A stretch of 64,000 nucleotides of DNA from Raillietiella orientalis (taxonomy: Eukaryota), in the NCBI GenBank assembly GCA_036172245.1, contig JAYWIR010000032.1, forward strand, positions 248,001 to 312,000, given 5' to 3'. Numbering within the stretch: the stretch's first letter is position 1; each line of letters starts with the position of its first letter. Shown in pieces: positions 1 through 43,362 of the stretch. A program made the position numbers and the translations under genes. The notes beneath the pieces are model-generated. The model had not been told where the DNA came from and made no database searches. It saw only the letters and a program-made list of their open reading frames with translations.

Positions 1-1903
1 TTGGCCTTCCTGAGAGGGCCTATCTGAGAGGGCGTGCTCTTCCAAACAATGAAGAAGCAGCGGGCTTCTCGTTTCAGGCTTTACTCTCTGTTCCGGTGAG
101 GTCGGTTACTTCCGCCTCCTCCGTCGAGTGTTCGGCCTGCGCGATTAGTTTTCGAGATAGCGTCTCTATGTCGACCTTGGCGCAGAAGTTCGCCTTTACG
201 TCGAGAAGCTGTTTGTCTAGCTTCTCGCATTCGGTGACCTCCACAACCTGGTTGACCTTCTACTGTGCATTGCAGAACTCCTGCAAGATTTCCTCTTGCT
301 AGGGAATGCTCTGCACCTCTATGACTTCATTAGCCAGTGATGTCAGCTCCTCCGTAGATTGCAGGGCCTTTTGCATCACCGGAGTGGCTTCGGCTATTTC
401 TTCTTCCGCGCCTTCCTGCGCTACCTCCATCTTCTAGCCTTGTTGCTCTTCACCTTCAAGGAGAAGAGGGGTTTCTTGCTTCTTGACGAGCATCCTTTTC
501 TTTCCTTTCTTCCCTACCTGTATAAAGCCGTCTTCCGATACAGGGACGGCTTCTTTCTCCTTCTTTGGGCTTCCTGCCTCCTGAGGCTGTTTCGCCTCCT
601 TGGTGTTTCTCTCTCTCAAGGGAGAAAGACCTCGAATCCTTCTGCAGTTTGCAAACTCCGGACAGCTCCATTTGGCATGTCCGTGTTTCTTGCAGAAGGA
701 GTACACCTCCGGCTTCGGGCAGTTCCGGACTAGATGTCCTACTTTGCCGCAGGAGAAACAACGGCATGTTGGGCAAGTGCCGGCCCTGTGGCCGAACTGC
801 TTGCACCTTTGCAGAATACCGGTTGATGTTGGTAGCGCACGTTCACTCCCTGGGATTGTTCGTCAATGAACGTCAACCTAGGTATAACAGCTCCCTCCTC
901 CATCTTCATCATGGCGATCATGTCGCCAGAAAATATATTTCCAGAGAATTTCTGGAATTGAAGGTCCAGAACTTCCCCATACTGCTCCAAAAAGTTCCAC
1001 ACCGTTAGTTGCGGTGTGAGGATGGAGATGCCGTTCAGAAAGACGGTTGTGTATGGCATTTAGCCAATACCAAAAACCATCCTCCCTTGTATATTGATCC
1101 CTTTCTGGATCAATCGCTCTCTAAGATTTTTACAGTCTGTGAAGACTGTGAACCCGTTGTTTGCCGGTATGATCGCCTGTATGCGATCAAAATTGATATC
1201 CGTTTTATCGAGGGACAGATACACCTCCCTGATATTATTAAATTTGATCAGCCCAGTCTTGAAACTGATTTGCTTCACATTCGGTCCTAAATCTACGATT
1301 GGCCGATCCACCTTTTGGACTTTGCCGCATAGCGGCTTACCGAATTTTCTTGGTGGGTGGACACTCTCTTGTCCAGCCGCCACCGACGCATAGGAAAAGG
1401 GCTGCGCCGCCGCAGCCGAACAAGATGGCGTCTCGCCCTGCACCGCGTGGACGCCCGCGGGTCCTGCCTGGGACGCCGCCGCCGCGAGCGCAACCCTCGA
1501 TGTCGCCAACGTTGCCACCGCGGGCGGCACCCTCGGCATCGCCGCGGTAGGCGCGACCTTCTTTGCTGCGGGCACGATCCTCGGCGTCGCCGCCGCGGGC
1601 ACGACCTGCGCCGTCGTCTCCGCGGGTACGACCCTTGGCATCGCCGCCGCCGGCGCAGCAAAGCCCGCCACGGGCGCCATCCTCGGCATGCCTGCCACCG
1701 CCTCGCGGTTGCCGCACGTTATCTCCATGGCTTCCATGGGGGACGACGGTCTCTCCACTTCTCCTTCAGGTGCCAGCATCCTGGCAGCTGGTCTTGCTGC
1801 ACGGGACGACTGCAGGTCTTCCGCCGTGATAACCTCAGCGCTTCTTTTGTTGTTTTGTCTGGAAAGTTTTCTTCTCCGGACACACACGAGCACAATGAAC
1901 TGA
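1..1903 (-). mobile_element. M5: 5' end and gag-like ORF1 of an L1/Tx1-like LINE, disrupted, running off the left edge (or an inverted 5' part of P1)
   Basis: Joined minus-strand ORFs 1060..1893, 739..1059 and 434..706 give an Ala/Pro-rich N-terminus, an RRM-like region and three Cys/His knuckle-like motifs (roughly C-x2-C-KQFGHRAGTC, CFSCGKVGHLVRNC, SFCKKHGHAKWSC) across stops and frameshifts. An acidic tail continues to base 1. Confidence 0.8.
1440..1715 (-). repeat. Degenerate ~33-bp coding tandem repeat in M5 ORF1 (AAA[MT]PR[VI][VP]PA-like units)
   Basis: Repeated units in ORF 1060..1893 (AAAMPRVVPA, AAATPRIVPA, AAMPRVPPA); recurring cctcggcatcgccgc-like motifs on +. Confidence 0.75.
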
Positions 1904-1906
1904 TTA

Positions 1907-2636
1907 ATCGTCGCCGACTCGGCAGGAGAGGAGCAATCTGCCTACTGCCGCGGAGGTTGCGCTTTCGCCGCCATTTAAGATTGCAACGAAAGCTGCGCTC
2001 CAGGCGGCTGGGGAGGCACGTTCGGAGGCGTCCCTCACGAAAGTCACGGAGCGCCCAGAACGAACGGACGTCGCGTGTACGGTTGCGGTGGAAGGGAGAA
2101 AAATAAAATCTTTTAAAAATTCTCCGCAACCTAGTTCCAAGAGACTCTCCAAGGCAAAGAACAGTGGCGCGATGCTGAAGACACGCTCGAAGGTTCCCTC
2201 TGCCGCTGCAGAGGCTACCGCGGCGGTCGCGAATGGCGCGAAAGTTGCGATCGCCAGGGACAATGTTCCGGTGATCGCTAAAAAGGAAGTGTCCGCGGTC
2301 ATATTTGGGAGCACCTCCAAACCGACAGCGCAGGTGAGGCGCGAAGCGTCTGCGCTTCAATCAGACTCTCAAACGGAGTCTGGGATCACCGACGCACGTC
2401 GGATCACACGCGCGGAAGCCGTAGCGCGACGGGCTAAGGCCCTAAGGCGCGCAGCGCAGGCCGCGAAGGAGCGAGAGCTCATCCCGGAGCGTCAAAGGAC
2501 GTTACGCGGAAATGAGCACTTCATTTCGTGCAGCGCCAAGGAGGACAGTGGCGACCGTGATCTCCAGTCAGCAATGCTGCTCACCGTCCGCTCCCCGCGT
2601 AAAGCGGGTAAAATGCCGCCAAGATCCCAGCATTAA
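1907..2636 (+). pseudogene. P1 ORF1 C-terminal part (basic, Ala-rich)
   Basis: The frame of ORF 2088..2636 is open from ~1907 and ends in TAA overlapping the ORF2 ATG (cat TAATG). Confidence 0.7.
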
Positions 2637-5600
2637 TGCGGGGAATCGCGTCTTCTCGTTGTCTGTGTGTTACGTGTTGGAACGTGAACGGACTGCAGAA
2701 CGACGAGAAGAGGCGATTGGTAGCACACTCCATGCGCTCCTTTGACCTTGCGCTCCTGCAGGAGGTTTACGTAATCTCCGACGAGCAGGCAGCCGATATC
2801 GAGGAGCGCGCAGGCGGAACGCTGCTATGGCGGTGCGGCGACCCACACACGTGCGGCGTCGCGTTCCTCGTAAGAGGAAAAATGGCGGAAGCGGTACGTA
2901 GTGTTCGTTTTCACGACGACGGACGCGTGGGCCGAATTGTTGTCAAGTGGTCCGAGTCCATAGATCTTGTCGTAACGAACATCTACGCTCCGAGTGGCTC
3001 TCGCTACTTCGAACAAAGAATTGCGCACTTCGAGGAAGTGAAATGCCACTGGCTCAACAGCTCCGGCTTCCAAGTGGCGCACCTCGTCGCTGGGGACTTT
3101 AACGTCCTCCTGCTCTCCGACGATTGGAGCCCCCCGAGGGAGCGCGCGCTGCCCATCGAGATGTGCGCGTCCGTGCACGCCGCCAACTTGATGGTCAGCG
3201 AACGTGAAATGGAAAGATCGCTCGATCACGTTTTCCTCCATGAAAATGCATTCGCGTGTGGGTAGGAGAGGAAGATTGTTGACTAGGCTTTCTGACCACC
3301 ACAGGTTGGAGTTTGAGATCCTTCCGCCAGGCAGGGGGCCTCCGTTGCAAAGCTGGAGGATGCAGGCGGATTGGCTTAGCCAACCGGAAGCTGCGGGGCA
3401 TCTACGTGGATACCTCCGAGGCTTTGCCATTCAAGAACTTGCGGACTGGGATGATCTCAAAAGATCTGTCCGCGAGTTCTGTTGCCAATTCCCCTTGCAC
3501 CGGCTTCCATGCGGTTTCGGAGAGGGCGTGGCCAACAGTAGAGACTTTTTGCAGGCCCGCACGTTTTCGAGACGCGCGGATGTCGGGCGTCTTGCAGAGT
3601 ACAAGGCGAGGGCCGAGCGCCAGGTCTGGCAGTCCGGAGCAGCATGCCTGTTGGACTACAAGGGCCAGGAATATTCCGCCCCAGCCGAAGTACGCCGCAT
3701 TGTGGGACGCTACTACTCCTCGCTGTACGCGGAATCCCCGACAGAGGATATTCTTTCTGACATACTCCTGTCTCAGGATGCTCGTGTTGTCGGTGAGGAG
3801 GAACGCGAACGTCTCGACGAGCGCTTCACGGCGGATGAATTTTCGACCGCCATCGCTGGGCTGAAGAGACGAAAGGCGCCAGGCGAGGATGGGCTCCCTG
3901 CACAGTTTTATCAGTGCTTTGCATTGGAGCTCATTCCCTTGATGCTGAAACTCGCGACGCTGATGAGTGAATCCGGGAATGTCCCGGATTCCTTCCGCTC
4001 AGCGAAGGTGCGTCTCCTGCCGAAAGGCGGAGACTTGCGCCAACTTAACAACCGGCGTCCGATCACCTTGGTGAACTCGGACGTCAAGTTGTTTTCCAAG
4101 CTGTAAGTCGCGCGGTTAGGAAGTATCGCGGAATCTGTGGTGAGCCCGGAACAAACCTACGCGGTTCCGGGACGATCCATGGAGGCGAACATCCTTTTTG
4201 CGCGTACATGGATGCAGCTGCAGGAAGTTGTGGCGCAGCAAAGCCAGGCTGCTGCGAAAGTCACTGCCGCAGGCACGAAGAACAGGCGCCGACGGCAGGA
4301 GGGAACGCCAGGTGCCTTGGCGGTCGCGGTCGATCTCCACAAGGCGTTCGACTGCGTAAACCAGAAGCTGCTTTTGGAGCTTATGGAACGCCTTGGGTTC
4401 CCGGCGCAACTCCTGCTGTATTTGCGCGCGTGCTGGCGCCACGCGCTTACCTACATTACTTTCAGCGGCTGCCGCGTGTATGGTATTCCCGTTCGTAGGG
4501 GCATCCGACAGGGCGACAGCTTAAGCCCGTTGCTCTTCAGGATCTTCTTTGAGTTGGTGCTAAGAGCATACAGGCTGACGCTGTCTCACTTGCCAAGCTC
4601 CTGCCCGGGAACGCCTGCCGTGGCCGCCTACGCTGATGACCTGCTTCTTCTGCTCCCCATGTCCACCCCGGCGTCCAGTGTCGAGGATTTCTTCGACCTG
4701 ATTCGTCGGGGAGCGGGCGTGAGCGTGAACAGAGAGAAGAGCGTGGTCGTTCCTGTGGGTACGTCGTTGGAGGGGCAGTCCGACTGAATCCGCCTGGGGA
4801 TCCCCACGGGCGGGTACTTTAAGTACCTTGGCGTTCCGTTGGGCGCTTTCGGCGCAGCCGAAGCGTGGGCGGACTGTCTTCAGAAAGCAGAGTTGGACAT
4901 CAGCCCGTTCTTTAACGGCAAGTTTACCTTGCAGGAACGGGCGACTATTTGGAACACCTTTGTGGCCCCCCTCCTCCGTCCCCTGTTTTTTGTTTTGGAC
5001 CCCCCCTATGCGGCAAAACAGCGGGCTAAGCGCCTGCTCAGGAACGCTCTTTGGGGTCCGGTGAGATCCAGGATCCGCCTTAAAGATTTGTCAGCTCCGC
5101 GTCGGGATGCTGGTTTGGGTATCCTGACAATGGAGCGAATCGGACTGCAGGTGCAGTTCCGACTGCTGGCACTGTGTGTCCAGCTATGGACATCCCCCCT
5201 GTGTGTGCCAGCTCGCATTCTCCTGCGGAGATGCGCCGGCAGCGGAGGATTTCTCTCGCTTTTGCCGGGCACTCAATACAGGAAGCGGGGTTTCGGTTTT
5301 CCATTGCGGCAGTTGACCGCACTTCTGGAAGCACACTCTTGGATCTCCTGCCGCCCAATGAACTTTGAAGCTTGGCGGCAGGAGTCTGTTGAATCCTGGG
5401 CGGCGTTCCAAGGAATACGCCCTGAAGATCTTCGCCCCCTGCGTCAATTTTTTCCACGATCCTTGGGAGGAGTACTGCAGGACGAGGTGAAGTTTTCTAC
5501 CCTGGCTGCCACGCCTCTTGCCGCAGCGCTGTCTGCCCTCAGGGCAAGAAACGACAGTTACCAACCGGCGAAGTGGGAGGTTTCCTGCACGATAGCGGGA

Positions 5601-6226
5601 ACAACCAAACTCCTTGGCACCTGGAAGACAAGTGAGTTGGCGGACGCCGCCACTCCTCGTGTTACTGCAAAGGGACTCCTCCGGTGGGCAGAAGAACTTG
5701 CTGTCACCCCCGAAGAACTTGTAGTCCCTCCACAGTGTATGGACAGTTCGCTGCTCCCCTTGCTTGGAAACAAGCCGTGCTGCTTCTCGTTCACTGGGGT
5801 TTTCAGTGCAACGAGCGTTGGCTTCGTGACTCCGGGGGACTTGCGTCTCCGAACTGCGTTCGGTGCGGATCGACGGAGTCGATTCCGCACCTACTTCTGG
5901 ACTGCGGTGTCCTACAAGGACTGTGGCGTAGGCTGGCAACAGCACTATTGCATCCCGTGGACACCGCAAGAGACTTGCTGCGACGATTCTTCACGCCGAG
6001 CGGGCTTTCACTAAGCGCAAGGATTGCAACCATCGGTTGCATACGCGCGATAGTTTCCGTCCGCCAGGCGTTGGTAATCAACGGACAGCACCAAGAGGAA
6101 ATCAGCAAAGCATCCTTCTTCATGGGAGCATCCGCTAGATGGCCTCATTTGTCAGAGGAGACAAAGAGGAATCTCGCCGCAATACACCGCCGGTTTACAC
6201 ACCCTCATCAGCGGCCAACCCGGTGA
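2636..6226 (+). pseudogene. P1 ORF2: APE endonuclease - reverse transcriptase - CCHC finger (2 frameshifts, 2 stops)
   Basis: WNVNG, LQE, NIYAP, GDFN, DHV and SDH (EN); KAPGEDG, LLPKGGD, RPITL, DLHKAFD, GIRQGDSLSP, YADD and KYLG (RT); CVRCGSTESIPHLLLDC. Spread over ORFs 2636..3265, 3204..4106, 4137..4787, 4839.. and 5684..6226. Confidence 0.93.
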
Positions 6227-6538
6227 TCATTGCCCTACCCTCCATAAACTAAATTTGTATTTTCTTTTTACACCCGCGTCCCCATAGGCTCCGGAACATT
6301 TTAGGTGCTCATCCTATAAATCCCCGTGAGTACGGAGCCTAACCAAAAACCCGTTACCCTTCCCTCCAGTTTTTAATTTTTGTTTGTTTCCCCTCATTCC
6401 CCCCACGCTGCGAGCGGTTTGTTTACCAGGCCTGCGTGCCGGTAATTTTTCTATGTTCTCTGTCGTTCTCTTGGTTGGAACATTGTCCCTGACCAGTTTA
6501 TTAATACTAATAAACGCCCCGGCGTGACCGGGTGATAA

Positions 6539-6881
6539 ATTTCAATCTCCGCCTGCTAACAGGTGAGCCCGAAACACAAGAGTACGCGATGATCGAGTTG
6601 TTCGCCGCCATGAGTGCGCGCAACTTGTTCGCGGGTGACAGGGTAATGGTCCGCAGCATCGACCACGTCTTCCTCGACGCTGACCTGTGTTCACGGGTCC
6701 GCAAATTGGAGAAGATTGCCTCCACGCAGTCGGACCATTCCCGGCTAATTTTCGAGAAGCGGTCTCGCGACAATGGACCGCTATCCAGGGACTGGCGTCT
6801 CCCCGAGGTCTGGAAGCGCCTCTCAGGTGCGAAGGAACACCTTCGCGAATACCTGAGAGGCGTCACGCTCCGGAATCTCCA
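6539..6881 (+). mobile_element. P2 piece 1: endonuclease C-terminal half, from (D)FNLRLL to LRGVTLRNL
   Basis: ORF 6532..6885 has FNLRLL...SIDHVFLD...SDH...WRLP; its reading frame resumes at 12397. Confidence 0.88.
6865..6881 (+). repeat. Target-site duplication of M4, left copy (ACGCTCCGGAATCTCCA)
   Basis: Identical 17-mer at 12397-12413. Confidence 0.93.
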
Positions 6882-7094
6882 TTGAAACCCGGGTGCGCCG
6901 GGACGTTTATTCTCACGAATAAACCTATACAATCTGTGTCTGGACCAGTAGTCCAGCCACGCCGTGGAAAGATATAGCTTGCCGGGCTACCGGTGCGCAG
7001 ACCGGCGCGGTCGACCTCGGCAGCAGAGAAGAGGGGGAACGAAACAAAAAGAAAACAAAAAATAAACAAAAATCAGGGAGGGAGCGGGAAGGGA

Positions 7095-10000
7095 TCACAG
7101 TCTGCTGGGAGGGTCCGTCATCCTCTGGAGGATGCCGGCAAGCTATTTCTGCTTGTGTGGTTCCAGAAGGGGCCATCGCGTCGCCATCCTGAGGAAACGG
7201 GCGGCATACACGTTGGCATCCCTGTCGCTGGATCCTCCCGTCGCTTTGCTCCATGCCACTACGATCCCGCGTAGGCAGCACAGGGCTGCAAGCGAGGCCG
7301 CTGGAGGCAGGGCGTCACGGACGAAGAGGGGGCGCAAAGCGTCTCTGGAGTTGCCTCCGGGGATCCCCGGGGCTGCGGCAAAGCGTTCCCACAAGGGACG
7401 GAGGGCAACACAATCCACTAACAGGTGGGGGAGGTATTCCCTCTCCCCACACCTGACACAATTAGGGTTGACACCCCCCCGCGTCCAGTGGTGTCGGCGG
7501 GCGTTGCAAGGAAGCCCCCAATGCAACACCATCAGTGCCGACTGTTGCCACTTCATGGGGAGGGTGCGCGAGTCCATGAACACCGGGGGCCACTCGAGAT
7601 GTTCCTCTGGAACATCCAGTAGCTCTCCCCAGCGCAACAGTCCATTTGGGGTGGTCCTCGGGGTCGCAGCGTTGGTGAGCTGACCCGTTCTCCAATCCAC
7701 GATCTTCTTTGCCCTGCTGTCGATCTTGACAGTAACCTCCCATTGTGCCGCGACGTCGCTGCCCAGATGTTCCCGTAGGGTAGGCAGTACCGCAGCAAGG
7801 GAGGTTCTTTGTGCCCACGCTCTCTTTCGGGGATTCTCGATGATTTCTCGGAGCGTGCGGCGGGCATGCGGCCCGAACAGAGCTATTCGCTCGTGTTGCA
7901 GGCTCTGCTCCTGAATCATCGCCCACGTGCGGACGGTTTCCTGCAACCAGGCAGGACCGTTCGCGGAGCGTACGAGGATCCGCTCCGAGTTGTTCTTCAG
8001 GAGCTTGGCCGCCCTCCGAAGTTGAAGTCCGCAGTGGCAGATGGGGCTTCGGAGTGCAAAGTAGGACGAGAGTCCCGCATTGCCGGTGGCCCGCTCGACG
8101 AGGAGACGTGCAGGGAGGCACCAAGGGGTGCACCAATTTTCTGCCATAAAGGCAACAACTCGGAACTGGAGCTGTAGCTCCAGCCGCTCCAACGTCAGGA
8201 GGGCCAGACCACCATCCCGACCAGGAGCGCACAAGTCCGAAAGACGGACTCGGGGCCTCCCTCTGCCCCAAAGGGCGATCCTCAGGAGGTCCTCCGTCCT
8301 CTTCTTTGACTCCGCTGAGGGGGGGCAAACAAAAAGCAAGGGGCGAAGGAGGGGGGCCGCAAACGCGTTCCACGCCGCGGCCCGTTCCTGCAGGTAGAAC
8401 CTGCCTTCCTGGAACGGGCCGATCGCCTCCTGAGCCTTCTGAAGGCACCCGGACCACGCTTCCGCAGGGGAGTAATCCCCCAACGGCACACCAAGGTACT
8501 TGAAGTACCTCACCGTGGGGATCCCCAAAACGGACCCAGTCCTGCTGCCCTGCCCACGCCGCTCCGACTGGCATTACGGAAGACTTCGCCCTGTTCACCG
8601 TCAGTCCTGTTCCCCGACTCAGCAGGTCGAAGAACTCCTCGACCGCCGCAGCCGGGGTGGACATAGGTAGCAGCAGCAGAAGGTCGTCCGCGTACGCCGA
8701 AACCGCAGGCGTACCGGGGCAATCGCACGACAGGTGCGCAAGAGTCTCCCTGTACGCTCTCAGCACCAATTCGAAAAAGGCGCTAAATAGCAGGGGGCTC
8801 AGGCTGTCTCCCTGCCGTATGCCCTGTCGCACCGGTACTCCGTGCACGGTTTGCCCGCTGAAAAGAACATTAATGAGCGCGTCGCGCCAGCTGGAGCGCA
8901 GGTAGGCCAACAAAGAGGCCGGGAAGCCCAAGCGTTCCAGAAGCTCCAGCAGGAGATTCTGGTCGACGCTGTCGAATGCTTTACGCAAGTCGACAGCGAA
9001 CGCAAGGGCTCCCTTCCCCACCCGACCGTTCCGTCTCCCGCCAAGGGACGCACCGGAATTCCGGCTGCTCAATAAGCCCCTTCCTTGTTGGAGCTCTAAC
9101 CATGTGGAAGCATGGAACAGGTTCGCCTCCATGCTCGGCCCGGGAACAGCATAAGTCTGTTCCGGGCTGATGAAGATGTTGGCAACCCGTCCCAGACGCT
9201 CTGCCCACATCTTGGTTATCAACTTGGCGTCCGCATCCACTATTGTGATGGGACGCCAGTTGTTCATGCTCCTTAGGTCTCCTCCCTTCGGGAGGAGCCG
9301 CACCTTTGCTGAACGAAACGAAGTGGGAACGTCACCTGTTTCACGGATCAGCAAGGTGAGCTGATGTACCAGGGGAGTAAGCTCAGCCGCGAAAGTTTGG
9401 TAAAACTTCGCGGGCAGGCCGTCCTCCCTTGGAGCCTTCAACCTCTTGAGCTTTCCGATGGCCGAGAGGATCTCGTCCATCGTGAAAGGCTCGTCGAGGC
9501 TTCTTTTCTCCTCCTCCCCGATCGCTGGAGCACCTTCCGGAAGCAGAATTCGTGAGACGTCCCGCTCCGGAGGCGCCCTGGCGTACAGGGAGGAGTAAAA
9601 TTTCCTGACTATCCCGCGTTTCTGAGTGCGAACCGAGTGCTCCCGGCCTTGGTCGTCCAGCAAGCTGGCCGACCCGGATTGCCAGGCTTGCCTCTCGGCT
9701 CCCGCTCGATACTCTTCTAACCTGCGCATGTCGGGGGTTATCGCGTAACGTCGGGCCTGAAGATAGCACCTTTCGTTACGCGGCCCCTCCCCAAATCCCG
9801 CAGGTAGGCGATGCAGGGGGAACTGATCGCAGAACTCCTGGACCGACCGCTTGAAGCGGTCCCAGTTCTGAAGTGTCTGCATCCTGAAGCTCCGAATAAA
9901 CGCGCGGAGGTGCTCCGCCGCGTAGGGAAACTTCAGCCAGTCCCCTGGCAGACGCCACGCTGACGAAGGGGTCCTTGTCGCGCGGACGCACTTCGAACAT

Positions 10001-10675
10001 GATCCGACCATGGTCCGACAGCTTGGATGGTACCTTGCCGCGCCTGCCAACCCGAGAGCATAGGTGCTGATCAAAGTACACGTGATCGATGCTGTTTTCT
10101 ATGGCCGTCTCCCCGGCCAACAAGTTGCGCGTGTTCATTTCTGCGCACAACTCGTTGACGCGGTCGTTCAGTGTATCCGGCGCACCTGAAAGCAGGCGCA
10201 GGTTGAAATCACCTGCGATCAGGTGCGCTTTGCGTACTCCTGCATCGGTCAGCCAATCGCGTCTCAGGGCAAGGTAGAATTCCCTTCTTGCCTTCGCCCT
10301 GAACGCGTTGTTTCCGCTAGGAGCGTACAGGTTGGTGACGACCAGGTCGATAGTGTCGGACCAGCTGAGAGTCAGCTGACCGACGCGACCTGCGTCATCG
10401 AACCGAACGTCCTTTATTGCGGTCTCGATGGCTGGCCGAAGCAGGAAGGCGACACCGCTTGATTTCGCGGTGCCGCAACGCCACAACAGCCGCCCACCCG
10501 AGATCCGTTCGATCTCCCGGGCTTGATCTGCGGAGATCACGTGGATCTCCTGCAGCAGCACCAGGTCGAAGGATGCCAGGGTGGCGGCCACGTCACGCCT
10601 CTTGCCGTCGTCGCTTAGCCCGTTCACGTTCCAACAGGCGATCAGAAGACGACGGCGAGAGGCGATTCCCGGCAT
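7095..10675 (-). pseudogene. M4 ORF2 (EN-RT-CCHC), 2 frameshifts and a late premature stop
   Basis: ORFs 9776..10675 (WNVNG, LQE, NLYAP, GDFN, IDHV, SDH), 7462..10074 (DLRKAFD, QGDSLSP, YADD) and 7143..8528 (KYLG, CVRCGEREYLPHLLVDC). Confidence 0.93.
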
Positions 10676-12314: not shown

Positions 12315-12396
12315 TGCTGCCTAATCCTCCACCCACACCACGCACAAGCACCAACGGAAATGAAACTCAGGAGCAACGAAAAGACACGTCCGCTCG

Positions 12397-13322: not shown

Positions 13323-13541
13323 TCTTCACCCGGATTTCGCCGGGGCGTATATTGTAGAAGAAACATTTACAAAGACGTTCGGTGGCTGGACCATTGCTCC
13401 AGCCACGCACGAAGAAATACAGAGACTGCCGGGTCACCGGTTCGCAGACCGGTACGGTCCACCACGGCAGCAGGGGGAAAAGGGAAAAAACAAAAAACAA
13501 AACAAAAAAGAAAAGAAAAGTTGGGAGGGTAAGGGAAGGGA

Positions 13542-16500
13542 TCACAGTTGCTGGTGGGGCCGTTGCATCCTTTGCAGGATGCCGGCAAGCTCCTTCTGTA
13601 TTCCTGGATCCAGGTGGGACCATCGGGACGCCCTCCTCAGGAAGTGGGAGGCTGGCTGGATGGCACCCTGGTCGCGTTGTCCTCCCGTAGCCTTGCTCCA
13701 AGCGGTGACGATCCCGCGTAGGCAGCACAAAGCTGCTAACGATGCCGCTGGCCGAAGGGCGTCGGCAACGAAGAGGGCTTTCAGTGCGTCCCTGGAGTTG
13801 CCGCATGGGATTCCGATGGCCGCGGCAAAGCGAAACCAAAGGGGCCGAAAGGCAACACAATCCACTAGCAGGTGGGGGAGGGACTCCCGTTCCCCACACC
13901 TGACGCAATTGGGGTCCACCGCACCCCAGATCCAGTGGTGTCGACGGGCGTTGCAGGGGAGTCCCCAGTGCTGCAACAGGAGAGCCGACTCCTGCCATTT
14001 TGAGGGAAGGGCGGAAGTGTTCATGTGCACCGGGGGCCACTTCAGATGTTCAATGGGAACATCGAGCAGCGCGCCCCAGCGCAGAAGTCCATTGGGAGGC
14101 GTACTCGGGGACGCAGCGTCTGTTAACTGGCCCGTCTTCCACTCTAATGTCTTCTTCTTCTTTCCGGAGATTGTAACTGAAACCTCCCACTTCGCCGCAA
14201 CATCGCTGTCCAGATCATCCATCAGGGAGGGCAGCGCAGCAGCGAGGGGGGTTCTTCCTGCCCACGCTCTCTTCTTTGGATCCTCCAGGATCTCGCGGAG
14301 CGTGCAACTTCTGTAACCCCCAAACAGGAACCTTTGTTCCTGTTGGGAGCGTTGCATGCCGAACTGTCCCCACGTTCGAACGGTTTCCTGCAACCAGGCA
14401 CTACCGTTCAACAGGCGACAGGTGAGCAATCGTGGGTTTTTGCGATATAGCGTAGCCACCCTCCGTAGCTGGAGTCCGCATCGGTTGACGCAGCGACGGA
14501 GTGCAAGAAGCGACGTCAGTCCCGTCTTGCCGATAGCTTGCTGGAGAAGGAGACGTGCAGGGACGCACCAACAGGTGCACCACAACTCTGCAACGAGTGC
14601 CGACAAGCGGAACTGCAGCTGAAGCTCCAGCCGCTCCAGCGTCAGGATGCTCAGACCACCATCCCGACGAGAAGCGCACAAGTCCTTTAAGCGGACTCGG
14701 GCCCTCCCGTTGCCCCAAAGGGGGATACGGAGGAGGTCCTTAGTCCGCTTTTTGATCCTCTCTGTGACGGGGCAAACAAAAAGCAGGGAGCGGAGGAAAA
14801 AAGCCGCGAACGTGTTCCAAACCGCGGCCCGTTCAGGCAGGAAAAACCTGCCGCCTCGAAACGGGCAGATCGCCGCCTGAGCCTTCTGAAGGCAGCCGGA
14901 CCACGCTTCCGCAGGGAAATAGTCCCCAACGGTACACCAAGGTACTTGAAGTACCCCACCGTGGGGTTCCCCAAACGGACTCAGTCCTGCTGCCCTGCCC
15001 ACGGCGCACCAACTGGCATCACGGACGCCTTCACCCTGTTCACCGTAAGTCCGGTTCCCCGATGCAGCAGGTCGAAGAACTCCTAGACCGCCGCAGCCGT
15101 GGTGGACATGGGGAGCAGCAGCAGAAGGTCGTCCGCGTATGCTGAAACGGCCGGCGTACCCGCACAGTCGTGCGGCAGGTGCGCCAGAGTTCCCCTGTAC
15201 GCACTCAGTACCAGCTCAAAGTAGGTACTGAAGAGCAACGGGCTCAGGCTGTCTCCCAGCCGGATCCCACGCCGCACCGGCACGCCGTGCACGGTCTGCC
15301 CGCTAAAAGTAACCTTGATGAGCGCGTCGCGCCAGCTAGAGCGCAGATAGGCCACTAATGAGGCCGGGAAGCCCAAGCGTTCCAGAAGCTCCAGAAGGAG
15401 ATTCTGGTCGACGCAATGGAATGCTTTACGTAAGTCGATTGCGACCGAAAAGGCTCCCTCCCCCACCCGACCATCCAACCCCCTGCCGGCGCACGCACCA
15501 AAATTCCGGCTGCGCACCAAGCTCCTTTGATGTTGGAGCTCTAGCCAGGTGGAAGCGTGGAACAGGTTCGCCTCCATGCTTCGCCCGGGAACAGCATATG
15601 TCTGTTCCGGGCTGATGAATATGTTGGCAACCCGTCCCAGACGCTCTGCCCACACCTTTGCTGGCAACTTGGCGTCCGCTTTCACTATTGTGATGGGACG
15701 CCAGTTGTTCATGCTCCTCAGATCTCCTCCCTTAGGGAGGAGCCGCACCTTTGCCGAACGAAACGAGGCGGGAACGTCGCATGTTTCGCGTATCAGCAAG
15801 GTGAGTTGCTGTACCAAAGGGGTAAGCTCAGCCGCGAAAGTTTGATGAAACTTCGCGGACAGGACGTCCTCCCCTGGAGCCTTTCGCCTCTTGAGCTTTC
15901 CGATGGCCGAGAGGATCTCGTCCATCGTAAAAGGCTCGTCGAGGGTCTTTCTCTGCTCCTCCTCGATCGCTAGAGCGCCTTCCGGAAGCAGGAGTCGTGA
16001 GATGTTGCTCTCCGGAGGTGCCCTGGCATACAGGGAGGAGCAATTACTCCGCAGCAGGCCGCGGATTTGGGCAGGTGCCGAGCGCTCCTGGCCCTGATCG
16101 TCCAGTAAGCTTGCCGATCCGGACTGCCAGGCTTGCCTCTGGGCTCCCGCTTTGTATTCCGCCATCCTGCCGATGTCGGGGGTCCTGGCGTAACGACGGG
16201 CCTGCAGGTAGGCTCGTTCGTTACGGACCACGGTCCCAAAACCCGTAGGTAGGCGGTGCAGAGGGAACTGGTCGCAGAACTCCTGGACCGACCGGTTGAA
16301 GCGGTCCCAATCCTGTTGTGTCTGCAGCCTGACGCTCCGTATGGACGTGCGGAGATGTTGCGCCGCGTCCGGGAGCTTCAGCCAGTCCCCTGGGAAACGC
16401 CACGCTGACGAGGGGGGGCCCCTGTCGCGCGGATGGATCTCGAGGACTAGCGGGCGATGGTCGGACAGCTCGCACGGTAACTTGCCGCGCCTGCCCACGC

Positions 16501-17122
16501 GAGGGCACAGGTGCTCGTCAAGAAACACGTGGTCAATGCTGTCTTCCATCCCCGGTGCACTGGCCAACAAATTACAGGTGTGCACCGCCATGCACACGTC
16601 GTTGACCAGGTCACTCTCGGGATTCTGCTCATCTGGTTTCAGGCGAACGTTGAAATCGCCTGCAACCAGATGGGCATTCCGCACGCCTGCATCGGTCAGC
16701 CAGTCTCGCCGGAGGGCAAGGAAAAACTCTTTCCTCGCGCTCCTGTTCATCAGGTGCTTGCCGCTCGGTGCGTACACGTTCGTGACGATCAGATCGATCG
16801 AGTCGAACCACCTGAGGGTCAGCTGGCCGACACGACCGTGATCGTCGAACCGCACGCCCCGAGCCGCGGTCTCGACGGCTGGCCGAAGCAGGTAGGCGAC
16901 ACCGCAACTTTTCGCTCTTCCACACCTGTACCATAGCCGCCCTCCGGAGATCCGTTCGATCTCTTGCGCTTGTTCTGCAGAGATCACGTGGATGTCCTGC
17001 GGCAGCGCAAGGTCGTAGGACTCCAGAAGGGCGGATATGTCTCGTCTCCTGACGGCGTCTGTCATGCCGTTCACGTTCCAAACGGCGATGCGCAGACGAC
17101 GGCGGGAGGAGATTCCCGGCAT
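13542..17122 (-). pseudogene. M3 ORF2 (EN-RT-CCHC), with stops and a frameshift near 15.0 kb
   Basis: ORF 15083..17122 (679 aa, EN through YADD) and ORF 13542..15002 (CVRCGERESLPHLLVDC). Confidence 0.93.
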
Positions 17123-17136
17123 TACTGCTGGGAAGA

Positions 17137-18798
17137 TTAAGGTGTGGGGGAGCCCTCCTCTTGCGAGGCAGGCGAAATGTCCATGGGGGTTTCGGCCTTC
17201 TCAGGCACCTGAGGCACCTGTTCGGCCTCCACCCCCTCCATCCTTTCCGTGTCCGCGCGTGGGAGTCTCTCGGGCGACAGGTCCCGAGAGTTTCCCACGC
17301 TCATGGCTCCCTCGCTTGCGGAAGCCATCTCTTTCCCCTCGACAGGGGAGATGGACTTCATCGGCTTTGTGGACTTACGTCCAGCCTTCTTGCGCGGTGC
17401 CGTGGAAACGGAGGCTGCTCTTCCGGCCTCCACCTCGGGGTCAGAAGTGGAGGACTCCTGAGGGGAGGCCGGACGCCTTACGGCCTTCTTGCCAGCCTTG
17501 GAGGGTTCTGGCTGCAACGAGGCTGCCAGCTCCTCCGCGGCTCGCGCGAAGGCTGCGTCATCGATGGTGGTGTCGATGACCGACGCCGCCGCCGGCTCGC
17601 TTCCCTCGCTGTTGACAGTGTCAACAGAGAAGAGGTCGTCGGTAGCGGCGAGTTCTTTCCTGCAGCGTTCGGCAACATCGAGAACACGTTCGACAACGAC
17701 GCTGCACTCTTTAATTATCGCGCTACCCTGCTCTTCCTTCTTTTGTTGGTAGGCGATTTTCTTTTCCATCCTCCTCTCCTTCTTTGATTTTTTGGCCGTT
17801 GCCACTTGCCACCCAGTCTCCTGGCCGGCTCCCTCAACTTTTTCGGCGTTGGTCGCCGGGGTCACGGGTGCGGCCTGGGTCTTGGGCGCGGGTGGTACAG
17901 CCTTCGCGGCAGCTTTCGCCGCCAGCCCTTTCTGCAGAAGCCGGGCGCGTTTTTTAAGGTTTCTCTTGGAAACCACCCGCACTGCTGCTTTTGGGCACAC
18001 CTCCCTCGTGTGGCCCATTGTGCCGCATACTTGGCACTGCACATTGGGACACCTCTTTGTAAGGTGGCCTGACGTATTGCAGAAGCCACAGTATTTCGGC
18101 TTCCCCACATACCAGAGGTCGACGGTTTCGCCTTCGACCACCAGTTTGTGGGGAAGAGTGCAGCCCTCCCGAACGGTCACGCGCGCAGCAGTAAGGCCGT
18201 GTTGCAGCCCCGTGTAGTCCTCGAAAGGACTAAATTTCGTCCATTGCGCGTGGACCGTTCCAAACTGTTCGAAAGCGGCGCGAACCTGTTCTTTGCGCAT
18301 TCGCGCGGTCACGCATAACACGTGGACCACCATGCTGCGGTCCGCCGTAGTGGGGAGAAGCCTACGCGTGCCCATCACAACGGGGGTTTTAAGCAGTCGT
18401 TGGGCCAGCTCTGCATGTTTGCAGATGACCTCAACGTACTGACCCCCGCTGCGGATGGTCATAGCGCTGAGCTCCTCCTTTTTCACATCGAGAGCGCGCA
18501 TAACCTTCGAGAAGCCGCGCGCGCTCTCTAAAGAATATAAATTGCCTACCTTGTAGAACAATGAGGGGTTGTACCCCTCCTCTACATAGGCCGACAATTC
18601 CGCCGCGGCTGCAGGCGATGGCGCCGACACAACGGCGCTCCACGCCCGCGCTGCAGCGGGGACCGATTCTGTGGGGGCGGATGCCCCCACCTCCATCGCC
18701 TCTGAGGGTGAGGTTGCCGCCGCCCCCTGGCTCTCCATCGCCTCTGGGGGCGGTGTTTCCGCTGCCCCCTGGCCATCTCTGGTGGTCCCGTCAGGCAT
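17137..18798 (-). CDS. M3 ORF1 gag-like nucleic-acid-binding protein, nearly intact (RRM-like + 2 CCHC)
   Basis: Open frame from MPDGTT; CGFCNTSGHLTKRC and CQVCGTMGHTREVC. It stops 5 codons before the conserved TAATG. Confidence 0.85.
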   Translation of the reverse strand: MPDGTTRDGQGAAETPPPEAMESQGAAATSPSEAMEVGASAPTESVPAAARAWSAVVSAPSPAAAAELSAYVEEGYNPSLFYKVGNLYSLESARGFSKVMRALDVKKEELSAMTIRSGGQYVEVICKHAELAQRLLKTPVVMGTRRLLPTTADRSMVVHVLCVTARMRKEQVRAAFEQFGTVHAQWTKFSPFEDYTGLQHGLTAARVTVREGCTLPHKLVVEGETVDLWYVGKPKYCGFCNTSGHLTKRCPNVQCQVCGTMGHTREVCPKAAVRVVSKRNLKKRARLLQKGLAAKAAAKAVPPAPKTQAAPVTPATNAEKVEGAGQETGWQVATAKKSKKERRMEKKIAYQQKKEEQGSAIIKECSVVVERVLDVAERCRKELAATDDLFSVDTVNSEGSEPAAASVIDTTIDDAAFARAAEELAASLQPEPSKAGKKAVRRPASPQESSTSDPEVEAGRAASVSTAPRKKAGRKSTKPMKSISPVEGKEMASASEGAMSVGNSRDLSPERLPRADTERMEGVEAEQVPQVPEKAETPMDISPASQEEGSPTP

Positions 18799-18893
18799 CG
18801 CTGCCTGATCGACCACCGAACCACACGATGCTTGCACTGGGAGACTTCCTGGCACGAGGAGCACCGAGAAAACACGTCCACCCTGAAGCACGC

Positions 18894-20955
18894 AAAGCGT
18901 TCGACAGCGTAAACCAGGACCTCCTTCTGGAGCTTCTGGGACGCCTAGGCCTTTCGACGCACCTCATCGCCTACTTGCGCTCCTGCTGGCGCCACGCGTT
19001 ATGCTGTATCTCTTTCAGCGGGCGCCACGTGTACGGCATACCCATACGGCGGGGTATCAGGCAGGGAGACAGCTTAAGCCCCCTGCTCTTCAGCATCTTC
19101 TTTGAGTTGGTGCTGAGGGCGTACAAGCTGACGCTGGCCAACCTGCCGAGCTCCTGCCCGGGAACACCGGCCGTGGCCGCCTATGCTGACGACCTTCTCC
19201 TGCTGCTGCCCATGTCCACCCCGGTGTCCAGGCTCGAGGACTTCTTCGAGCTCATCCGTCGGGGAGCGGACCTGAGCGTCAACAGGACGAAATCAACCGT
19301 TGTACCGGTTGGCTCTACGTGGGAGAGGCAGTCCGACTGGATCCGCCTGGGGATCCCCACGGGCAGGTGCTTCAAGTACCTCGGCGTTCCCTTGGGCGCC
19401 TTCTGTCCAGCAGAAGCGTGGTCGGACTGCCTTCAGAAGGCCGAGACTGCTCTGGGCCCGTTCCATGGCGGCAGGTGTCTCCTGTCGGAACGGGCCTTCG
19501 TGTGGAACAATTATGTTGCCCCTCTCCTCCGTCCCCTCTTTTTTGTTTGTCCCCCTCCCTAATCGGCTAAGCGTTGGACGCAACGCCTGTTGCGTAACGC
19601 CCTGTGAGGACCGGCGAGGTCCAGGATCCGCCTGAAGGACTTGGCGGCTCCTCGGCGGGATGCAGGATTGGCCATCCTGACGCTGGAGCGGATCGGACTG
19701 CTAGTGCAGTTCCGCATGCTGGCCCGTTGTGCGCAGCTCTGGACTACTCCCTGGTGTGCTCCAGCGCGGCTGCTGCTGCGGCGCTGCACGGGTGCCGACG
19801 GACTACGTTCGTTGCATCTGCGCACGGAGCGCGCCCAGAGAGGATTCGGTTTCCCTTTGAAGCAGCTCGCCACGCTTCTGGGAAAGCATGAGTGGATCTC
19901 CTGCCGAGCGACGAACTTCAACGCCTGGAAGCAGGAAGCCCTATCGTCCTGGGCAGCGCAACAGGATGTGTCCGGTTTGGAACTCCGTTACGTGAAACTT
20001 TCCCCATACTGTCCAGTGGGGGAGGTGCTGGGAGACCAGGACCAGTGGACACGCCTAGCCGCTACGCCACTCGCCGAAGCACTGTGTGCACTGATGGTGC
20101 GACATGACAGTGACCAGCCGGCGAGGTGGGAGATCACTTGCGAAATCGCAGGCGAAACCCGACTGCTGGGCGGCTGGCGGACTTGCGAAGTGGCAGATGC
20201 TGCCACACCTTGCATTCTTGCAAAGGGGCTTCTCCGGTGAAGTGAGCTCCTCGGGGTGCCCATCGATGAACTTGTGGTCTCTTCTACGTGTTTGGACGCG
20301 ACTCTCTTCCCCCTTCGGTGGAAGCAGGACGCTTTTCTGCTGGTGCATTGGGGTTTGTACTGCAACCAGCGGGTGCACCTGATTTCCGGGGGAGTTGCGT
20401 CCCCTAACTGTGCCAAATGCGGAGCGGTGGAATCGCTTCCGCATTTGCTGTTTGAGTGCTGTGCCTTCCAGGAGCTGTGGCGGCGGCTGTCTTCAGCGCT
20501 CCTGCACCCTGGACACACCGCACTGGATTGGATGCGCCGCTTCTACAAGTGTGGCGGACTTTCTCTTGGAGCGGTCTTCGCAATCATCTGCTGCGTCCGC
20601 GCCATTGTCAGGGCCCGCCACGTATTACAGATGCGAGCAGTCCCAACATCGGTCCCCGATACCGCAGCCTGCAACCTGCAAATGGCTGCCGGGTGGCCAC
20701 ATCTTGGAGCAGTAGAGGACGGAGATCGGCGGCATGCACCGCCAGTTCTGAGAATAGGAACGGTTAGACCGTATACCCCTGTCCCCGCCCTCCCACCCAA
20801 TTTATTTGTTTATTGTCCAACCCCCTCCCGTTCCGAACTCTCAGTTGCTCGGACTGCGTTCAGGGAAATCTGCTCCCCATTTTCTGTTTCCCTTGCCTGG
20901 GAACACAGTTCCCAGTTGATATTATAATAAACGTCCTGGCGCAACCGGGTAATAA
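18894..20955 (+). mobile_element. P2 piece 3: RT from KAFD to the 3' terminus
   Basis: KAFDSVNQDLL...QGDSLSP...YADD...KYLG; CAKCGAVESLPHLLFEC; ends AATAAACGTCCTGGCGCAACCGGGTAATAA. Confidence 0.9.
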
Positions 20956-22113
20956 ACGACAACGCTGCATTCTTTAATTTGCTCGCTTGCCTGCTCTTTT
21001 TTCTGGCGGTCCGCGAGCTTTTCCTCCATCCTCCTCTCCTTCTTTGATTTTTTGGTTGTAGCCACCTGCCACCCTGGCTCCTGGCTAGTTCCGTTGACTT
21101 GTTCGGCGTTTTTCAGCGCGGTCTCGGATGCGGACTTGGCCTTGGGCGCGGGTGGCGTAGCCTTCGCGGCAGCTTCCGCCGCCAGCCTTTTCTGCAGAAG
21201 CCGGGCGCGTTTTTTAAGGTTTCTCTTCGAAACCACCCGCACTGCTGCTTTAGGGCACACCTCCTTCGTGTGACCCATTGTGCCGCATACTTGGCACTGC
21301 ACGTTGCGATACAGCGTTTAGAGGTGGCCGGACGTATTGCTGAAGCCGCAGCATTTCGGCTTCCCCACATACCAGAGGTCGACGGTTTCGCCTTCGACCA
21401 CCACTTTGTGGGGAAGAGTGCAGCCCTCCCTAACGGTCACTTGGGCATCCGTGAGGCCGTGTTTCAGCCCCGTGTAGTCCTCGAAGGGACTAACTTTTGT
21501 CCACTGCGCGTGGACCGTTCCGTGTTCCTCCAACGCGGTGCGAACCTGTTCCTTGCGCATCCGCTCGATAACACCTAACAGGTGGACCACCGTGCAGCGG
21601 TCCGCCGTAGTGAAGAGGAGCCTGCGCGTTCCCATCACCACGGCGGTTTTAAGCAGTCGTTGGGCCAGCTCTGCTTGTTTGCAGATGACCTCAACGCACT
21701 GACCCCCGCTGCGGATGGTCATAGCGCTGAGCTCCTCCTCTTTCACATCGAGAGCGCGCATGCCCTTCGAGAAGCCGCGCGCGCTCTCTAAAGAATATAA
21801 ATTGCCTACCTTGTAGAACAATGAGGGGTTGTACCCCTCCTCTACATTGGCCGACAATTGCGCCGCGGCTGCAGGCGATGGCGCCGACACAACGGCGCTC
21901 CACGCCCGCGCTGCAGGGGTCACTGATTCTGTGGGGGCGGATGCCCCCACCTCCATCGCCTCTGGGGGCGACGTTGCCGTCGCCCCCTGGCCATCTCTGG
22001 TGGTCGCCTCAGGCATCGCTGCCTGATCGACCACGGAACCACATGACGCTAGCACTAGGGGAGACTTCCTGGCACAAGGAGCACCGAGAAAACACGTCCA
22101 CCCTGGAGCACGC
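20956..22113 (-). mobile_element. M2: 5' end and most of ORF1 of the M3 subfamily, interrupted by the 3' end of P2
   Basis: Near-identical by eye to 17700-18893; ORFs 21318..22115 and 20922..21302; breaks at KECSVV. Confidence 0.9.
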
Positions 22114-24195
22114 AAGGCGTTCGATTGCGTAAATCAGGATCTCCTGCTGGAGCTTCTGGAACGTCTCGGTCTCTCGGTGCACCTCGTGGCGTATTTGCGC
22201 GCTTGCTGGCGCCACGCGATCATTTCCATCTCTTTTAGCGGCTGCCACGTGTACGGCGTGCCGGTGAGGCGGGGCATCAGGCAGGGCGACAGCTTAAGCC
22301 CGTTGCTCTTCAGCATCTTCTTTGAGTTGGTGCTGAGGGCGTACAAGCTGACGCTGGCCAACCTGCCGAGCTCTTGTGCAGGAACGCCGTCCGTGGCGGC
22401 CGATGCTGACGACCTGCTTCTCCTCTTACCCATGACCACCCCGGCGTCCGGTCTCGAGGATTTCTTCGAGCTGATTCGCCGGGGAGCGAGCATGAGCGGA
22501 AACAGGAGCAAGAGCGTGGTCGTACCTATTGGTGCGGCGTGGGAGGGGCAGTCCGACTGGATCCGCCTGGGGATCCCGACCGCTTCCTCCATGCAATATC
22601 TGGGCGTTCCGCTGGGGAACATCAGCCCAGTGGAAGTGTGGTCGGACTGCCTTCGGAAGGCTACGAGTGCGCTGAGCCCGTTCCACCATGGCAGGTTCGT
22701 CCTGCCGGAGCGGGCCACGATATGGAACACCTTCGTTGCCCCCCTCTTGCGCCCCTTGCTTTTTGTTTTCCCGCTCCCCTGCTCTGCCAAGCTCCAGGCG
22801 CACAGCCTTTTGAGGAACGCTCTGTGGGGACCTGCGAGGTCCAGGATGCGCCTCAAAGACTTGGCGGCTCCGCGTCGGGATGCTGGTTTAGGCATCCTGA
22901 CGCTGGAGAGAATGGAGCTGCAGGTGCAGCTTCGGATGTTGGCCCTGTGCGCCAACGTTTGGTCCACTCCGTTGTGCGCTCCCGCGCGCCTGCTTCTGCG
23001 GCGCTGCACAGACAGCGATGGATTTCTGTGGCTGCGGCCGCAAACGGAGCGCGCCACGAGAAGCCTCGGTTTCCCCTTGAAACCGCTCTTCCGGTTCCTG
23101 GAAGCCCAGGAATGGATCTCCTGCCGCCCAACGAACTTTCAAGCCTGGCGGCAGGAACCGTTTTATGGCTGGGCAAAGCAGCAGGATGTTTCCCTCCTTG
23201 AACTCCGTTGCGCTCACCTCTCCCCGTACTGCACGGTGGATGAGGTGTGCAACAGCCAGGAGAAGTGGACCAGCCTGGCCGTCACCCCCCTCTTCGACGC
23301 AGTCAGCCCTCAGGGCAAGAGATGACAGCTGCGAACCGGCGAGATGGGAGGTCGCCTGCACCATCGCAGGAACAACGCGACCTATTGGCGGCTGGAGGAC
23401 TTGCCAGCTGGCGGACGCCGCCACGCCTCGCCACGTTCCGAAGGGACTCCTTCGGTGGTGAACACTTAAGTGTGGCCCCCGAAGAACTTGTGGTCCCTCC
23501 CTCCTGTTTGAACACTTCTGTGTTCCCCCTTTCGTGGAAGCAGTACGTCATCATGCTGGTGCATTGGAGTTTTCACTCCAACCAGCGCACGAACCGTGTT
23601 TCCGGGGGAGTTGTCTCCCCAAACTGTAAGCGGTGCGAGGAAGTGGAAACGCTCCCGCACCTGCTCCTGGACTGCAGTGTTCTCCAAGGACTTTGGCGGA
23701 GGCTGGCCTCAGCTCTCCTGCACCAGGGGGACACCGCGAGAGACTTGATGCGCCGCTTCTTCACGCCAGGTGGCCTGTCTTTGGGTGCTGTCGTTGCAAC
23801 CGTGTGTTGCACCCGCGCCATCGACAAGGCCCACCGAGAGTTGAAGAAGCTGGCCATCCTTCGTCAGCCCTGAGGATTAGCCAGCGCAAGCATGTCGTCG
23901 GCTGCCGAGTGGGCCCACCTACCAGAGAGCGTGAGGAGAGAGATCGCCGGCATCCATCGCCGGTTCTGAAAGGAAGGAACGGCCGAACCAAAGACCCCTG
24001 TCCCCTGCCCTCCATATTTGTCTTTTTATTTTTTATAGTAGTGTATTTGTGGTCCCCTCCCTCCCGTTCCGGACTTTCGGCATACCGACCTGCGTGTCGG
24101 GGATCCCACCCCCTTCGTCTCTTGTTTTCCCCTTTGTCCAGGAACTCTGTTCCCGGATAGTTTTTAATAAACGCTCCAGCGCACCCGGGTGATAA
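22114..24195 (+). mobile_element. P3: LINE from RT KAFD to the 3' terminus (defective, DADD in place of YADD)
   Basis: ORFs 22177..23325 and 23247..23873 (CKRCEEVETLPHLLLDC); ends AATAAACGCTCCAGCGCACCCGGGTGATAA. Confidence 0.9.
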
Positions 24196-24570
24196 CCAGC
24201 CCACCCTCCGCGATCGTTTCGATCTCCTGGACGTCTGCCGCGGTGATCACATGGATCTACTGCAGCAGGGCCAGGTCGAACTCACGCAGGGTGCCGGCCG
24301 CATCTCGTCTGTTGCCGTCGTCGCGCAGCCCGTTGGCGTTCCAACTGGCCACGCGGATCCGACGGCGACAGGCGAGCCCAGGTGTTATTCCTGGGAAATC
24401 GGCTCTGCGGCTTGCGCCACCTGTTGGGGCGGGACGCAAGGAGGAGGAGGGGCAGGTGCGTCGAGCACCTGCTACGTACATGGAGGTGTGTTCCTCGCCC
24501 CGTCCGGCTAGGCATTAGCCGGTAGCACGGCGGATGGGGGAGCCCAAGCACACCCCGTCTCTGCTGCAGG
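24196..24570 (-). mobile_element. M1: 5'-truncated LINE (ORF1 tail + start of endonuclease), outermost element of the nest
   Basis: PGLACRRRIRVASWNANGLRDDGNRRD...FDLALLQ. Abrupt switch to AT-rich DNA at ~24570. Confidence 0.82.
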
Positions 24571-31520: not shown

Positions 31521-31539
31521 CTAGCCGTCTCTTGCCCTG

Positions 31540-43360: not shown

Positions 43361-43362
43361 GT

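Follow-up and report, generated by a model that had tools for sequence, protein, structure and literature searches.

Nested islands of long interspersed nuclear elements (LINEs) are known from green algae, in several of which they are candidate or proven centromere DNA. As far as the cited descriptions go, Zepp of Chlorella and Coccomyxa and ZeppL of Chlamydomonas form such islands by targeting their own copies, and these islands mark the centromeres (PMC8226300, PMC3446292, PMC9940879, PMC11005252). The same descriptions give a GC content of 61% for the Coccomyxa Zepp, compared to 53% for the genome (PMC3446292), and present Zepp arrays as tandem and made up mostly of 3′ ends, which is due to frequent 5′ truncation (PMC8226300). 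Here we describe a LINE nest in Raillietiella orientalis, found in a stretch of 64,000 nucleotides (assembly GCA_036172245.1, contig JAYWIR010000032.1, positions 248,001 to 312,000, forward strand) that is referred to as the window. Positions 1-24572 of the window consist of 10 pieces from 8 L1-like LINE copies, with an apurinic/apyrimidinic (APE) endonuclease and a reverse transcriptase (RT). Judged by the descriptions cited, the locus resembles the Zepp and ZeppL islands in being a nested, GC-rich and gene-free LINE island of tens of kb, and differs from Zepp in its full-length 5′ ends, its alternating strands and its two interleaved sister lineages. A preliminary description of this DNA had likened it to Zepp clusters; as an analogy between nested LINE islands the comparison is apt, and Zepp may be taken as the closest known behaviour.

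The closest mechanistic analogy may lie with the site-specific APE LINEs of the Tx1 and R1 groups, which reuse the same site in a fixed orientation, insert full-length with precise 5′ ends, and have a multicopy conserved target. Tx1L targets the Tx1D transposon and R1 targets 28S rDNA. The likeness is in site reuse, which was seen for 2 of 3 insertions of one lineage here, a small sample. The target in the present case differs in being the catalytic codons of a sister LINE and not an RNA gene, a microsatellite or a DNA transposon, and the specificity is not strict, as the third insertion lies elsewhere. Russian-doll arrangements, in which the interruptions reveal the order of insertion, are also found in the nests of long terminal repeat (LTR) elements in maize, the transposable element (TE) networks of Drosophila heterochromatin and the HeT-A/TART arrays. 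These piles are mostly attributed to survival in permissive DNA or to end-targeting, and they differ from the present one in that no coding-motif site is reused in a sister element. A non-exhaustive search of the literature brought up no LINE reported to target the codons of a catalytic motif in a sister LINE.

In the nest described here the entry site can be read to the base, and in two cases it is one and the same stretch of 11 bases, part of a conserved RT motif in a sister element. We believe that the nest probably arose by repeated target-primed reverse transcription of at least two sister L1-like lineages, one sublineage of which, represented by the copies M2 and M4, selects its site. 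If this were to hold genome-wide, it would offer a concrete targeting mechanism for LINE-in-LINE clustering, by sequence-specific nicking or by RNA-guided homing into codons that do not drift, and the catalytic codons of another LINE would be a new target class for site-specific elements without LTRs. If it were not to hold genome-wide, we would be dealing with gene-free DNA in which transposons had piled up in the ordinary way.

The pieces of the nest and their order

Pieces were mapped by tblastn, with the proteins of the best-preserved copy as a ruler, by reading of the junctions and by exact string look-up. The ruler was M4 (13323-18893, minus strand), with an open reading frame 1 (ORF1) of 608 aa and an ORF2 split into 705 and 557 aa. 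From left to right, the pieces are as follows (q, position on the ruler; UTR, untranslated region).

M5: 1 to about 1960, minus strand; 5′ part of a LINE that extends beyond the start of the window, identified from ORF translations, with an approximate right border
P1: about 1961-6538, plus strand; ORF1-tail-like region, ORF2 (endonuclease q23 to C-terminus q556) and 3′ UTR, with the terminus ...AATAAACGCCCCGGCGTGACCGGGTGATAA
P2a: 6539-6881, plus strand; first visible piece of P2, endonuclease q182-294
M3: 6882-12396, minus strand; full-length M-type LINE (5′ end, ORF1, ORF2, 3′ hairpin), antisense in P2
P2b: 12397-13322, plus strand; second piece of P2, RT q281-594, terminating at the KAFD codons
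M4: 13323-18893, minus strand; full-length M-type LINE, the most intact, with one frame change in ORF2, antisense in P2 at AAGGCGTTCGA
P2c: 18894-20955, plus strand; third piece of P2, from the RT KAFD (q586) to the C-terminus, then 3′ UTR, with the terminus ...CCGGGTAATAA
M2: 20956-22113, minus strand; M-type LINE of which the 5′ part is present (5′ end and ORF1 q1-424), interrupted at 20956 by the P2 3′ terminus
P3: 22114-24195, plus strand; 3′ part of a P-type LINE, q591 to the end, starting exactly at AAGGCGTTCGA (KAFD), with the terminus ...CCCGGGTGATAA
M1: 24196 to about 24572, minus strand; M-type endonuclease fragment q15-89 and a GC-rich stretch, the outermost shell, with the right border set by a drop in GC

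The nest, taken as the first 24.5 kb, has a GC content of 55-62%, and the remaining window mostly has 35-56%. In tblastn, M3 was covered from q62 to q608 of ORF1 and over the entire ORF2, while ORF2 of P1 was fragmented into at least 4 ORFs. M1 is 72% identical to M3 and 56% identical to P1. The 5′ end of M2 has the same form as that of M4, and a 40-base offset between the blastn blocks of these two copies is explained by a 42-bp tandem duplication (2.0 copies, 85% match; 18691-18773) in the 5′ region of M4, which M2 does not have. The preliminary description had found no non-LINE DNA in this part of the window. That was borne out for the pieces mapped by homology; for about 1961-2611, 6215-6538 and 24422-24572, which gave no homology evidence, we infer LINE origin, each of them having a coding part on one side and a canonical element terminus on the other. 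A reading of about 1961-2611 as a homologue of the M ORF1 tail was rejected, as a two-sequence search returned low-complexity similarity only (E 0.001).

All 5 visible 3′ ends share one signal, which consists of AATAWACG, a 5-bp GC hairpin and a short tail of GATAA, AATAA, TTCAA or GAAGA. The three P-type 3′ ends, at 6538, 20955 and 24195, are alike (...AATAAACG, GC hairpin and TRATAA, giving ...CCGGGTRATAA), and the M-type ends carry a close variant of this signal. The hairpin pairs are nearly invariant, and thus offer no covariation evidence. A poly(A) tail is typical of mammalian and most plant L1 elements and is also present in Zepp, whereas no A run was found at any of the 5 visible 3′ ends here. 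At the other terminus, all three M copies in question (M2, M3 and M4) have a complete and conserved 5′ end, which reads ...ACACGTCCACCCTGRAGCACGC in M4 and M2 and, in a shorter form, ...ACACGTCCGCTCG(ACGC) in M3. The string GGAGCACCGAGAAAACACGTCCACCC from the M-type 5′ end occurs exactly twice in the window, in M4 and in M2, the version in M3 having diverged.

M3 is flanked by a target-site duplication of ACGCTCCGGAATCTCCA, with 6865-6881 identical to 12397-12413 in 17 of 17 bases. The duplication around M4 is AAGGCGTTCGA at 13312-13322 and AAAGCGTTCGA at 18894-18904, which match in 10 of 11 bases. When the three pieces of P2 were rejoined, with one copy of the duplication dropped at each join, a single frame ran through both joins, reading ...GVTLRNLQDWDLF... 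and ...IDLHKAFDSVNQDLL..., as the preliminary description had claimed; the restored frame contains 7 stops over 3.3 kb. The insertions of M3 and M4 into P2 are thereby proven. Every junction that is visible on one side only coincides with the canonical terminus of the inserted element, and the order of insertion can be deduced from the element that each junction interrupts: M1 was entered by P3, P3 by M2, M2 by P2, and P2 by M3, M4 and P1. This order, and the count of eight LINEs, had been proposed before, and both agree with the tblastn map, the junctions within the window and the duplications of M3 and M4. The four flank strings named at that time were located as well, ATTTCAAT at 6539, ACGACAAC at 20956, AAGGCGTTCGA at 22114 and CCAGCCCA at 24196. 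The first of these places the start of P2a within the codons of the GDFN endonuclease motif (ATTTCAAT = D-FN).

Such a nest might also be an artefact of assembly, a chimeric contig in which reads from the many similar LINE copies were joined wrongly. Repeats are abundant in this region, and no contig listed from the single public run that was found (run X1; 0.06 share of words, short contigs) adequately spans a junction. Mis-joins, however, swap sequences at homologous positions and do not yield exact termini, duplications of 17 and 11 bases and a host frame that resumes precisely, and we consider an assembly artefact very improbable. The assembly is supported by this internal logic and not by independent reads. 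A total of 544 contigs of run X1 were at least 85% alike to the nest (41 at 99% or more, 135 at 95-99%, 162 at 90-95% and 206 below 90%), and the LINE families are abundant in the genome sampled by that run. Two joints in these contigs correspond to empty sites, from 6879 to 12415, without M3, and from 13322 to 18972, without M4. P-like copies that lack M3 or M4 are what the insertion model predicts. A further joint, from 14773 to 22273 with 26 letters between that resemble the M 5′ end, was given no interpretation.

The relation of M5 to P1 is the weakest in the nest, as it is read from a single head-to-head junction at about 1960, and M5 may have been inserted into P1. Another possibility is that M5 is a P-type ORF1 that was flipped by 5′ inversion (twin priming), with no nested insertion; a P-type ORF1 is otherwise unseen within the window. 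No inverted repeat was found between 1-600 and 1960-2600, which weakly disfavours an overlap of both parts. ORF1 of M5 has an RRM-like region and three CCHC knuckles (zf-CCHC, PF00098, 24.4 bits with a cut-off of 20.8). Its tblastn similarity to the M ORF1 is confined to the knuckles (36.6%), so that M5 is not M-type; it may represent a P-type ORF1 or a third lineage. A 27-bp tandem repeat of 3.2 copies (1568-1654) lies inside the Ala/Pro-rich N-terminal part of this ORF1.

One 11-base site entered twice

M4 in P2 and M2 in P3 occupy an identical 11-base site, AAGGCGTTCGA (AARGCGTTCGA), in the KAFD codons of the RT, in the same orientation and with the same M 5′ end. In a global alignment of 17693-20955 with 20956-24195, the M part was 89.1% identical (1030/1156) and the P part 72.2% (1483/2053), and windowed identity fell from 0.94 to 0.80 at the M/P junction (z ~11). 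We therefore read these as insertions that took place independently, the two M copies being close relatives and the two P copies that they entered being more distant from each other. In a different account, a single M/P junction would have been copied, and a part of the nest would be due to rearrangement. About 3.2 kb could have been duplicated in tandem or as a segment (17693-20955 to 20956-24195), or a P element with an M already in it could have retrotransposed, and it is true that the blocks are adjacent and collinear across 3.2 kb. A duplication would diverge evenly, however, whereas the divergence observed is uneven with a step at the junction. In addition, the supposed border of the duplication is the canonical P 3′ end to the base, M4 has a target-site duplication of its own, and P2 continues beyond the block in frame, in P2b. 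We therefore regard a copied junction as improbable. An origin of the repeated junction by 5′ transduction was rejected in view of the identity step and the exact termini.

For 2 of 3 M insertions to share both position and strand in a host of about 6 kb, the chance is about 3/12000. The KAFD codons of the M elements themselves differ from the site at two bases. Of the two copies of the M4 duplication, which differ at one base, the one beside the M4 3′ end matches P1 and P3, and the other is P2's own. This could be a loose fit to templating by read-through from the donor, and could equally be a point mutation.

Strand tracks lineage throughout the nest, all M-type copies lying on the minus strand and all P-type copies on the plus strand. 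By DNA identity, M1, M3 and M4 group together at 72-83%, and P1, P2c and P3, compared over the 3′ half, at 69-73%. The insertions of P3 into M1, M2 into P3, P2 into M2, M3 into P2 and M4 into P2 are antisense, to which M5 into P1 is added if it is a separate element, and P1 into P2 is sense. Here, to be antisense is to be in the other lineage, and the lone sense case is a P element in a P element, so that orientation is confounded with the alternation of families. The antisense majority reported in the preliminary description (at least 5 of 7, or 6 if M5 is a separate element, with P1 in P2 as the sense case) was found again, as 5 of 6 or, with M5, 6 of 7, while its general rule of alternating orientation was not sustained. 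The two 5′ pieces of P2 (6539-6881 and 12397-13322) are 63-67% identical to M3 and M4, compared to 50-60% to P1. This suggests from sequence comparison that P2 may be a mosaic, formed via recombination or template switching between LINE lineages.

Target-primed reverse transcription is established for the pair of an APE-type endonuclease and an RT. In the course of events that we consider probable, the RT of both lineages would recognise the shared 3′ hairpin, as the conserved ends suggest, and the lineages would have inserted into each other in the order M1, P3, M2, P2 and then M3, M4 and P1. The sublineage of M2 and M4 would pick the 11 bases AAGGCGTTCGA in the KAFD codons of the P-type RT, and would enter antisense and full-length. 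Selection on the RT would keep these codons constant, which would make a target of each sister copy that is active or was recently active, and LINE DNA would thereby draw in further LINEs. The apparent antisense rule would then be a by-product of site- and strand-specific nicking. Site choice might reside in the specificity of the endonuclease or in guidance by RNA, both being possible; our preferred guess is that a donor occupying the same site gives rise to 3′ read-through RNA, which might anneal to the target. Annealing of read-through RNA has been reported for R1-type elements.

Some weaker details are in line with a choice of target. The entry of P1 into P2 lies inside the GDFN endonuclease motif. 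Among the X1 contigs, the joints from 6533 to 16655 and from 6538 to 16959 place an element 3′ end beside an antisense M-type endonuclease, with shorter sides of 21 and 30 letters. At one X1 joint, with a side of 21 letters and 16 unexplained letters between, the 3′ end meets GDFN of an M-type copy in the opposite orientation. The entry of P3 into M1 lies 24 bases from another X1 joint. A more far-reaching version has the two sister lineages homing into each other's catalytic-motif codons, M elements into KAFD of the P elements and P 3′ ends at GDFN. The window has one P-type 3′ end at GDFN, and an X1 contig weakly indicates another. We consider mutual homing unlikely. If true, it would make enzyme-constrained sequences a permanent landing pad, possibly guided by read-through RNA, and would amount to a self-sustaining and sequence-specific LINE-in-LINE parasitism that builds GC-rich islands like green-algal centromeres.

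Several observations weigh against site selection within a two-lineage nest. The site preference is based on 2 events only. M3 was inserted at a different, non-conserved site, and in P1 the identical KAFD 11-mer, at 4341, is intact and unoccupied. No convincing nick-site consensus common to the 5 distinct targets was found. The outer shells (P1 in P2, P2 in M2, M2 in P3 and P3 in M1) are each inferred from one visible junction. Among the X1 contigs listed, none spans a junction of the window by at least 31 letters on both sides, which is uninformative either way; record 2 of the run crosses 6538 by about 20 letters. The orientation bias is not significant alone (one-sided binomial test, p = 0.109 for 5/6 and p = 0.0625 for 6/7). 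Finally, given that the 5′ half of P2 is nearer to M, the picture of two families is a simplification.

The position of M3 and the empty site in P1 would also be expected under passive accumulation, in which insertion is near-random, copies survive only in gene-free and rarely recombining DNA, and the shared site is due to a local hot spot or to luck. The right part of the window is without recognisable genes and contains older LINE debris at 30.4-31.7, 42.6-47.3 and 63.9 kb, and survival has been offered as the explanation for green-algal centromeric TEs, by the description cited (PMC11005252). Passive accumulation leaves it to chance, at the odds of about 3/12000 given above, that the same nucleotide and strand were entered twice independently. 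All 6-7 insertions, moreover, lie inside LINE DNA, though about 40 kb of equally gene-free DNA adjoins; the product of length fractions for the young insertions is about 4e-4, a rough figure that is biased by the choice of region. We think that passive accumulation is a credible, though rather unlikely, account. The pile probably does not result from passive accumulation alone, and its elements probably favour relatives as targets. The preference for relatives that the preliminary description had put forward is in this way upheld as probable, by the double entry at one site, by the insertions lying within LINE DNA and by the further X1 joints.

The hexamer ATCTCC (plus strand; 6875, 12407, 13304, 6545 and 24222) was observed near the 3′ junction, no more than 26 nt away, at 4 of the 5 distinct sites. 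Relative to the inserted element it has no consistent orientation, and these ORFs contain it often (30 sites on both strands in 24.6 kb).

Protein domains and relatives

Pfam searches of ORFs on both strands of the nest detected Exo_endo_phos (PF03372) and RVT_1 (PF00078) above the cut-offs in M3 and M4 (E 2.8e-16 and 5.7e-10 for PF03372; E 2.4e-20 and 9.6e-15 for PF00078). RVT_1 was also matched in P2c and P3. For a cysteine-rich (CCHC) region at the C-terminus of ORF2 the match was weak: zf-RVT (PF13966) scored 20.4 and 17.0 bits, where the cut-off is 27.5. The closest solved structure was human LINE-1 ORF2p (E 6e-34), and R2 was matched at E 2e-10. The RT is placed as in human LINE-1 ORF2p (query 364-696 against 392-708), and both have an N-terminal APE domain. 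Identity to human LINE-1 is about 30%, and the elements described here differ from it in having CCHC knuckles in ORF1, a 3′ hairpin without poly(A) and an apparent target preference.

An exhaustive HMMER search returned one close relative, P0001, from a metagenome (72%), and all others were at about 38% or less. After P0001, the first named relatives were LINE proteins of one turtle and two fishes (31-38%; ten matches were looked up). Word-based protein searches gave, besides P0001 (71%), distant relatives only. No second copy of the M4/P2c junction was found, as a query with the ORF that spans this junction gave 29 matches, all of them to the RT part only. Scanning of metagenomes with an RT alignment gave 3 loci, all just 31% identical and too distant for junction analysis, and the ESM Atlas returned generic endonuclease and RT clusters only.

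The adjoining 40 kb

From 24.5 to 64 kb, no Pfam family was above the cut-off in the 150 ORFs of at least 81 aa that were scanned (of 189 of at least 75 aa). Older, decayed LINE debris of the same superfamily was observed at 30376-31741, 42616-47347 and 63885-63998, with 27-68% aa identity to M4 and P1, and debris pieces of opposite strand lie side by side. The right end of the window may enter another cluster. A direct repeat of 350 bp links 42461-42808 with 43471-43817 (77%).

Rfam and tRNA scans of the window detected no tRNA and, besides one fragment of eukaryotic large subunit ribosomal RNA (LSU rRNA), nothing else. This fragment of 158 nt (30905-31062, minus strand; positions 1179-1347 of RF02543, 86.7 bits) lies among old C-terminal LINE fragments at 30376-30654 (plus), 30992-31408 (plus) and 31485-31741 (minus). 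It could be a retro-copied piece of rRNA or the remnant of an rDNA-associated insertion.

The AT-rich blocks at 24571-28570 and 32571-36570 have a GC content of 36-39%, a CpG observed/expected ratio of 0.40-0.55 and a TpG/CpA excess of 1.27-1.33, and in the nest the CpG ratio is 0.84-1.22. CpG is thus decayed in the flanks and not in the nest, and the ratio in the nest speaks against heavy CpG methylation of the genome, as found in vertebrates.

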